64,000 nt of DNA from Escherichia coli 042 (GCF_000027125.1 NC_017626.1), one strand, 5' to 3'. Shown: positions 62,897 to 63,564, numbered from the stretch's first letter. The notes: a model not told the origin generated them from the letters alone. Program-made: numbers and translations.

Positions 62897-63196
62897 TTAT
62901 AACACCCCCATCACCTGCATTGATTTTTGCAGAGTTAAATCACCACAGGTATAAGCGTCTTGGTAAGCTTTATCCAGTTGCGCTTTCAAACAAGATTTAT
63001 CACAACCGTACATTAATGCAACCTCATCAATTACCATACATCTGGCATCTTTATAACTCATTTCTTTTCCAAAATGCTTTTCTTCTATTAGAGTGCCTGT
63101 AGCTGAGTGTAATGCACCATGTGAACCAGTACGATTGTCTTTTCCTTCCAGACAAATTGTAGGCGCTTTGCCTTCGGTATATTCCCCCCCCAGCAC
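62897..63196 (-). CDS. hypothetical small protein (up to 99 codons from a GTG start; ATG alternative gives 54 aa), first gene of the paralogue array
   Basis: Cys-rich ORF coupled to paralogue C; the GTG start lies in a G8 homopolymer (63184-63191); the start codon is uncertain. Confidence 0.35.
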   Translation of the reverse strand: MLGGEYTEGKAPTICLEGKDNRTGSHGALHSATGTLIEEKHFGKEMSYKDARCMVIDEVALMYGCDKSCLKAQLDKAYQDAYTCGDLTLQKSMQVMGVL

Positions 63197-63564
63197 TTTC
63201 TTGTTGGATATTTGCTACGGGGCATTCTTTATATTAATTTTTCTTCCTTATGGAGTATCTCTGTTTGACACTTTAAAGTCTCTATGAGAATTATAAGATT
63301 TTTTTTAAAATAATACGTTTTCAGATTTAGCAACAGGATTTTCACTCATACGATTAATATACGATATTTTAATCTCAAAAATATATTTGGCTGGTGAAGC
63401 TATCTGGGGTGTATATTCACACCACATATATTATCAAAAGGCAGTTACGCTACCGCCATACCCTGATAAAACTCACCATCTGCACGAAACGGATTTTACG
63501 CTTTTTCTTCCGGCGAAATATCAAATTCTCAATTCAAATAATATCTATTGCGTTATATGACCTA

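Follow-up and report, generated by a model that had tools for sequence, protein, structure and literature searches.

A variable poly-G tract in a probable relic of a Tox-GHH2 effector gene downstream of cusS in Escherichia coli 042

A 64-kb stretch of the genome of Escherichia coli 042 (the window; positions are counted from its first letter) contains, directly 3' of cusS, an array of genes read on the minus strand, the first of which is an open reading frame (ORF) of 99 amino acids (aa) with a GTG start and a run of eight G near that start. The sequence makes it very probable that this ORF is the decayed 3' relic of a type VI secretion system (T6SS) effector gene of the PAAR-like/Tox-GHH2 nuclease kind, standing before its cognate immunity gene in an orphan-immunity island, and that the variable length of the G run reflects neutral slippage in a pseudogene. 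In this reading the relic starts abruptly at 63230, having lost the delivery domain (PAAR-like), the linker and the GHH motif needed for catalysis; further damage consists of a TAA within the frame, an expansion of G6 to G8 that shifts the frame by +2, and a 1-nucleotide (nt) deletion near the 3' end. The features on which this reading rests are as follows.

62897–63196, minus strand: the 99-aa GTG ORF (translation, Tox-GHH2 match, PGAP annotation)
63229–63231, minus strand: TAA stop just before the first toxin-homologous codons (...KLI*RMPRSK), marking the 5' truncation (frame translations)
63187–63228, minus strand: toxin remnant in the ATG frame, RMPRSKYPTRKCWG, 14/14 identical to residues 156–169 of the Escherichia whittamii protein P0048, with the ATG at 63225–63223
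63184–63191, minus strand: G8 tract, ancestral Trp-Gly-Glu codons (TGG GGG GAA, G6) with 2 nt added, causing a frameshift (frame analysis, in-frame relatives)
62924–63187, minus strand: toxin body, 86% identical to P0048 (tblastn)
63107–63121, minus strand: HxxxH retained as S-H26-G-A-L-H30, the second Tox-GHH2 signature (aligned with the invariant H columns)
62936–62937, minus strand: 1-nt deletion, GATTTGAAC to GATTTAAC, as a result of which the final ~20 codons read as the tail TLQKSMQVMGVL* (alignment with the allele L016)
62880–62936, minus strand: original toxin tail NSAKINAGDGGVINDEDI (62936–62883, 18/18 identical to P0042, from a second E. coli allele) and original TGA stop (62882–62880), now out of frame
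62875–62881, minus strand: putative Shine-Dalgarno sequence GAGGTGA of imm1, overlapping the original toxin stop (read from the sequence)
61831–62871, minus strand: imm1, an intact immunity-family gene of 346 aa, 68–70% identical to the genes that follow Tox-GHH2 ORFs in the Salmonella locus L011 and in L009
63299–63306, minus strand: A8 tract (read from the sequence, genome comparison)

Toxin homology and lesions of the relic

The Prokaryotic Genome Annotation Pipeline (PGAP) names the 300-nt GTG ORF 'HNH/endonuclease VII fold toxin-2 domain-containing protein' (WP_001305542.1), and its product matches Pfam Tox-GHH2 (PF15635) with 32.9 bits (E = 8.8e-8; gathering cut-off 25) over profile positions 31–120 of 122. 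The protein search returned few relatives, but informative ones, among them P0048 (272 aa, partial) and P0004, a 189-aa protein from a Logan assembly. P0048 reads ...GKGCCPGQTGHHLLADTMFRDQEKTIIAREEWNKDPSHRNKDGKLKRMPRSKYPTRKCWGEYTEGKAPTICLEGKDNHTGSHGALH...TCGDLKSAKINADAGDGVGKNAEDI and P0004 has the same layout; in both, as in Salmonella, the frame runs on upstream through GKGCCPGQTGHHLL. In the window, the homology to the relatives' proteins is spread over three frames (tblastn), and residues 1–155 of P0048 have no match in any frame. Homology to the Salmonella and Logan toxin genes at the DNA level begins at 63230, and the three upstream frames are all closed within 17 codons of the G tract. 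A weak similarity further upstream ('HKEEKLI*' and 'HRDENGKLKS') was not relied on, because the DNA homology starts only at 63230. Searched by sequence against solved structures, P0048 gave no meaningful match.

A full-length relative is found in a T6SS cluster of Salmonella enterica (L011), which encodes VgrG, DUF6484, DUF2169, a 347-aa protein, a 538-aa effector with PAAR-like and Tox-GHH2 domains and a 342-aa immunity gene. Behind these stands another Tox-GHH2 copy, truncated at its N-terminus, together with an immunity gene of 346 aa. The frame of this orphan copy is still open through the GHH, and the E. coli copy is therefore much the more decayed of the two.

The history of the lesions can be partly ordered. 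At the position of the G tract, the in-frame relative L009 has TGT TGG GGG GAC (G6) and Salmonella has TGC TGG GGA AAA (G4), also in frame, and so the tract began as Trp-Gly-Asp/Glu codons within the toxin coding sequence. L016, a diverged second allele of the island, has the same truncation point, TAA, A8 and G8, but its tail is intact; G8 and the truncation are thus older than the split between the alleles, and the tail deletion of the window is later. The two E. coli relic alleles differ at few sites, mainly in a patch at 63039–63057, where the window relic shows 8 substitutions within 20 nt relative to both L016 and E. whittamii (SYKDARC vs NYVTARD), the flanks being otherwise identical. 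This patch looks like a short recombination tract.

The family is defined by two motifs, s[AGP]HH and HxxxH (Zhang et al. 2012, PMC3482391). Every longer relative, namely P0048, P0004 and the two Salmonella copies, has GQTGHH ~50 residues before MPRSK (alignment A1), whereas neither the window ORF nor any upstream frame contains the s[AGP]HH signature (alignment A1, frame translations and tblastn). Pfam profile coordinates were set aside as uninformative for locating the GHH, since intact relatives too align only from profile position 17–24, apparently owing to a ~35-aa insertion (alignment A1); motif-level alignment was used instead. In Tse7 and related effectors, substitutions at the [A/G]HH site abolish nuclease activity and toxicity, and the catalytic histidine at the end of beta-1 is the sole invariant residue of His-Me finger nucleases (bioRxiv 10.1101/2023.03.20.533438). 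From the missing GHH and this requirement we infer that no allele of the ORF can be an active nuclease. A fused N-terminal trafficking domain (PAAR-like/DUF4150 or RHS) is likewise absent, given the closed upstream frames and the homology from 63230 onwards. When tracts of G6 to G10 were modelled, the longest product had 109 aa and lacked both the GHH and a delivery domain; G6 or G9 rejoins the ATG frame to give MPRSKYPTRKCWG(G)EYTEG..., of 108 or 109 aa.

Much of the initial annotation of this region holds as a description. The 99-aa ORF is present, the next in-frame ATG would leave 54 aa (MSYKDARC...GVL, by translation), and the G run has exactly eight residues. The GTG is not inside that run, as had been stated, but at 63196–63194, 2 nt upstream of it, and the run makes up codons 2–5 (L-G-G-E). 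A run of nine A reported at 63299–63307 has in fact eight, 63307 being T; it does lie in an AT-rich upstream region (63231–63331, 23.8% GC). An ATG at 63225 in another frame, which had been overlooked, joins the frame of the ORF at G9 or G6. The number of such runs in the window is not above chance (G8: 1 match vs 1.24 expected; A8: 3 vs 9.1, both from dinucleotide-preserving shuffles), and the G8 is the sole G/C run of at least 7 in the 64 kb. The suggestion that the protein is a small toxin or an effector tip named the right family; what is encoded, however, is a truncated and frameshifted relic without GHH and delivery domain. That no clear ATG start was found would follow from the ORF being a pseudogene fragment, which has no genuine start.

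Tract length between strains

Of 5426 complete E. coli genomes, 152 carry the 1-kb stretch around the ORF at ≥99% identity. Among these, 139 have a G8 tract, 8 have G7 and 5 have G9 (with one strain of the last group deposited twice), and the PGAP coding sequence changes with the tract, from 99 aa with a GTG start (G8) to 103 aa with an ATC start (G7) or 109 aa with an ATG start (G9). The A tract is A8 in 149 genomes, A9 in one and A7 in one, the last being strain FCI48, which is also G7. A comparison of tract lengths across strains, as the initial annotation had proposed, thus reveals a G tract that varies and an A tract that is nearly fixed. By exact protein look-up in a larger collection, the G8 product was found in at least 1000 contigs, the G9 product in 188, the G7 product in 90 and the G6 product in 64. 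G6 is nearly confined to contigs >1 Mb or <5 kb, the fetched examples are also A7, and this allele looks to be largely long-read homopolymer under-calling. A7 likewise accompanies G7 in several assemblies, and part of the tract variation looks like the same kind of long-read error. The contig sizes of G9 are distributed as is normal for short-read assemblies; this allele occurs in 317 collection blocks, nearly always with A8, and on at least two cusS haplotypes, and is probably a real, recurrent +1 slippage. Tract-length variants in general recur on different cusS haplotypes.

If the ORF is a relic, its GTG (G8), ATC (G7) and ATG (G9/G6) 'starts' would be choices of the gene caller within a pseudogene, and the G tract would be a slippage-prone homopolymer that drifts without constraint, its length altering the annotated ORF but never restoring the toxin. 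A genuine phase-variable locus would share some of these features. Its simple-sequence tract would be expected in the 5' coding region or promoter, and the G8 does occupy codons 2–5 of the annotated ORF; the tract is polymorphic among isolates of several backgrounds (G7/G8/G9 = 8/139/5, partly confounded by long-read error), and G9, with its ordinary short-read contig sizes, is probably real. Since G9 and G6 bring the ATG at 63225 into frame, slippage could turn a small protein of 108–109 aa on (G6/G9) or off (G7/G8), and the product or its translation might modulate, for example, expression of the downstream immunity gene. Against this, one tract length should give a complete functional protein, and every allele encodes a stub lacking GHH and delivery domain. 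The out-of-frame G8 is predominant (91% of complete genomes and at least 1000 contigs), the window allele has an independent 3' frameshift as expected of decay, no Shine-Dalgarno sequence is seen by eye before the ATG or the GTG, imm1 has its own GAGGTGA, and the variation partly coincides with A-tract shortening, a typical sequencing error. We therefore consider a phase-variable locus very improbable, and we find it harder still to believe in a particular form of it, in which G9/G6 cells make a catalytically dead Tox-GHH2 fragment of ~109 aa that binds the immunity protein or DNA, such that subpopulations differ in immunity output or titration. Were it true, a phase-variable modulator of T6SS immunity would have been built from a toxin relic. 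The concern in the initial annotation that tract length alters the gene model is borne out as far as the PGAP calls go, although there is no functional gene to switch, and a switch at a start site or promoter is contradicted by the position of the G tract within ancestral toxin coding sequence, of which no tract length rebuilds a complete toxin. Invariant tracts and a clear conserved ATG had been named as findings that would dismiss such a switch; the G tract is polymorphic, yet the switch has nothing intact to act on.

As little credence as to a phase-variable locus can be given to a functional orphan toxin cassette, that is, a silent reservoir from which a new toxin/immunity type would be formed by recombination with a full-length effector gene already resident, as has been shown for Rhs orphans of Salmonella. 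The architecture is suggestive: the 3' fragment is homologous to the C-terminus of a full-length effector and has no 5' part or start of its own, an intact immunity gene of the cognate type follows directly, in Salmonella a similar copy with a truncated N-terminus stands behind a full-length effector, and the recombination mechanism is described in literature cited in PMC5361080. The E. coli fragment, however, does not lie downstream of a full-length effector in a T6SS, Rhs or contact-dependent inhibition (CDI) cluster but beside cusS, outside any T6SS cluster; in the carrier E. coli genomes no second full-length PAAR-like copy was found at the DNA level, a single place in them matching the PAAR-like stub. 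Only 14 codons are kept upstream of the tract, leaving almost no 5' homology for recombination, and the fragment has no GHH and two frameshifts. We hold it least probable of all that the G8 is a sequencing or assembly artefact, with a true tract of G6 or G9, an ORF starting at the ATG and strain variation due entirely to homopolymer error. Nearly all G6 assemblies are multi-Mb (long-read) or very short contigs whose fetched examples have A8 reduced to A7, several G7 assemblies are A7 as well, and strain FCI48 combines the two. But G8 was obtained by many laboratories (139/152 complete genomes, at least 1000 contigs) and recurs in short-read assemblies of the diverged allele L016; the window has no gaps relative to strain 118UI over 6 kb (64000–57971), which makes its own G8 call credible; and the ORF would still be a truncated relic at G6 or G9.

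Several observations weigh against our interpretation of the ORF as a decayed relic. Even without GHH, a fragment could retain binding to DNA or to the immunity protein. In the PGAP annotation the ORF figures as an ordinary coding sequence rather than a pseudogene, and it is ≥99% conserved over the 152 genomes, though this is expected of a recently shared island. The in-frame G9 and G6 alleles together (188 + 64 contigs) outnumber G7 (90), a possible sign that the ATG frame is favoured, although G6 looks largely like long-read error. Finally, a consensus scan of 62700–63700 found no sigma-70-like site on the coding strand, so that the imm1 promoter was not located there. The homopolymer variation nevertheless looks like neutral slippage combined with sequencing noise and would, judged from the sequence, alter the annotation and not the biology. 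RefSeq holds three ordinary proteins (99, 103 and 109 aa), according to homopolymer length, for what would be one decaying toxin remnant, better marked as a pseudogene.

Immunity genes, regulatory signals and chromosomal setting

The remaining features of the array and its borders are listed below.

63565–63981, minus strand: 3' end of cusS, encoding the C-terminus of a sensor kinase (HATPase_c, E = 4.9e-29; RefSeq annotation cusS)
63440–63457, minus strand: terminator-like hairpin and T-run downstream of cusS, GGCGGTAGCGTAACTGCC TTTTGATAAT (consensus scan, a pattern match only)
63332–63564, no strand assigned: cusS-downstream flank, common to E. coli strains without this island
63231–63331, no strand assigned: AT-rich segment of 101 bp, 23.8% GC, extending from the island junction to where the toxin homology starts
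63290–63295, minus strand: perfect TATAAT adjoining the A8 tract on its 3' side and lacking a recognisable -35, a candidate weak promoter (read from the sequence; not in the consensus scan)
61729–61777, minus strand: internally deleted toxin gene, METNVY (61777–61760, the first 6 PAAR-like codons) joined to the acidic tail DSYDDNCDN* (61758–61729) (translation)
60679–61719, minus strand: imm2, an intact immunity paralogue of 346 aa, 74% identical to imm1
60311–60625, minus strand: N-terminal fragment of a PAAR-like effector, a 104-aa ORF (Tox-PAAR-like, E = 1.5e-11)
59269–60279, minus strand: imm3, an intact immunity-family gene of 336 aa, 35% identical to the immunity gene beside the full-length Salmonella effector

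The toxin genes are gutted in all three cases and the immunity genes are intact in all three. The imm1 ATG lies 8 nt past the original toxin stop, with GAGGTGA 5–6 nt before it, and imm1 and imm2 share 68–75% identity with their counterparts in L009 and beside the Salmonella orphan. The 104-aa PAAR-like ORF corresponds to the N-terminal quarter of an effector, its first ~92 aa resembling, by eye, the start of the 538-aa Salmonella protein. An immunity gene with its own Shine-Dalgarno sequence is probably what is maintained here; the relic and the 101-bp AT-rich segment would now probably serve only as the 5' leader or promoter region of imm1, and the island probably represents an orphan immunity set against incoming Tox-GHH2 effectors. 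If so, it adds a case of an E. coli island in which T6SS immunity genes persist as the corresponding nuclease toxins decay, which fits the view that immunity genes are kept as a defence against the effectors of other strains.

The spacer after imm1 (61729–61830) repeats the 53-nt spacer after imm2 (60626–60678) and then continues as METNVY-DSYDDNCDN* just before imm2; this almost completely deleted toxin gene indicates that the imm1/imm2 pair arose by duplication or recombination of whole toxin-immunity modules. Within the pair (60679–62871), the C-terminal halves (~170 aa) are near-identical and the N-terminal halves diverged (ORF translations), a pattern that suggests recent gene conversion or a mid-gene recombination breakpoint. 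L016 has a single 346-aa gene. At 62344, in imm1, the window has G where 16/16 other compared loci of this island allele (L014–L015, L019–L032) have A; the change is synonymous (GTG/GTA, Val) and therefore a private single-nucleotide polymorphism (SNP) of this genome. Within the intact imm3, at 60109–60117, nine A in a row (plus strand; T9 on the coding strand) form the longest homopolymer of the window, a potential frameshift hotspot in a still-open gene.

The ORF had been called promoter-proximal, and it is indeed the first after cusS, although, as noted above, the scan finds no sigma-70-like site on its strand. The transcription of imm1 by a weak promoter in the AT-rich segment or by read-through from cusS is possible. 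A switch in promoter spacing through the A tract is unsupported: no -35 accompanies the TATAAT, no scan site lies on the strand, and A8 is kept in 149/152 genomes. A leader peptide, also considered in the initial annotation, was rejected together with an attenuator, since the ORF is toxin-derived, Rfam yielded nothing above threshold in 62700–63700 (one sub-threshold match, E = 0.7), and the consensus scan placed no terminator-like site between the ORF and imm1.

cusS is a conserved chromosomal gene at the island border, and the island occupies the site between cusS and nfrB; copies of ISEc1 and IS1 lie close by. After the GTG ORF, PGAP lists two 346-aa 'WD40/YVTN/BNR-like' genes, the 104-aa 'PAAR-like domain-containing protein', a 336-aa hypothetical gene, ISEc1 copies and a SUKH-3 gene. 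Locus L008, which carries a different (SMI1/KNR4) island, is 89.6% identical to window positions 63600–63332 and shows no similarity past that point, placing the island junction at about 63332/63331. The 101-bp AT-rich segment, which holds the A8 tract and the TATAAT hexamer, is homologous neither to L008 nor to the toxin loci of Salmonella and Logan, and is identical in the second allele L016 but for 1 SNP. The L008 counterpart of the cusS–nfrB gap (NZ_CP169399.1, 3089–5141 of the locus) contains an SMI1/KNR4-family immunity-like gene and hypothetical genes, and the site appears to be a hotspot for immunity-gene islands.

Two further observations concern assembly and insertion. A ~91%-identical copy of cusS and the relic on a 14.6-kb linear 'plasmid unnamed1' of strain GN06156 (L007, NZ_CP095532.1) has a frameshifted cusS and many frameshifts and internal stops; it was disregarded, being probably a long-read contig that was deposited as a plasmid without polishing. 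Relative to 118UI, the window has an insertion of ~767 bp at 57204–57970, which breaks the transposase gene of ISEc1 (ISAs1 family). The insertion is of the size of IS1, includes an InsB-like ORF of 167 aa (57219–57722) and shows an overlap of ~10 bp at its junctions; it accounts for the fragmented transposase ORFs at 57945–58625.

Relation to known systems

The T6SS cluster of Salmonella itself shows loss or replacement of effectors, since in some Salmonella genomes (as in L010, GCA_025402115.1, positions 6779–8001) neither the 538-aa full-length effector nor its immunity gene is present, and the orphan Tox-GHH2 fragment follows a 1.2-kb stretch in which no genes are called.

Tse7–Tsi7 of Pseudomonas aeruginosa (PA0099/PA0100), in which a PAAR-like DUF4150 domain is joined to a Tox-GHH2 DNase with an immunity protein, belongs to the same toxin family, PF15635. 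The full-length Salmonella relative shares the architecture of Tse7, a PAAR-like fragment is present in the island of the window, and the immunity gene lies directly downstream. Unlike Tse7 (315 aa), the window copy has no attached PAAR-like domain and no GHH, carries two frameshifts, and retains at most ~100 aa derived from the toxin.

In the T6SS clusters of Vibrio cholerae, orphan immunity arrays arise by effector displacement and contain leftover 3' ends of effectors (Kirchberger et al. 2017, PMC5361080). The island resembles these arrays, and orphan Rhs/CDI modules, in that effectors have been lost or cut to their 3' ends, immunity genes are retained in series and the modules were horizontally acquired. 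It differs in being a stand-alone array between cusS and nfrB instead of closing a T6SS or Rhs cluster at its 3' end, with no resident full-length effector found. Nor does it fit a purely sequential displacement, as imm1 and imm2 are close paralogues with near-identical C-terminal halves, which points to duplication or recombination.

The likeness to the contingency loci of Neisseria, Haemophilus and Campylobacter lies in the poly-G near the 5' end of an annotated ORF, whose length varies and with it the frame. In contrast to those loci, no tract length here yields an intact protein, the main state is out of frame with the only ATG, and the tract arose in a coding sequence that was already truncated.
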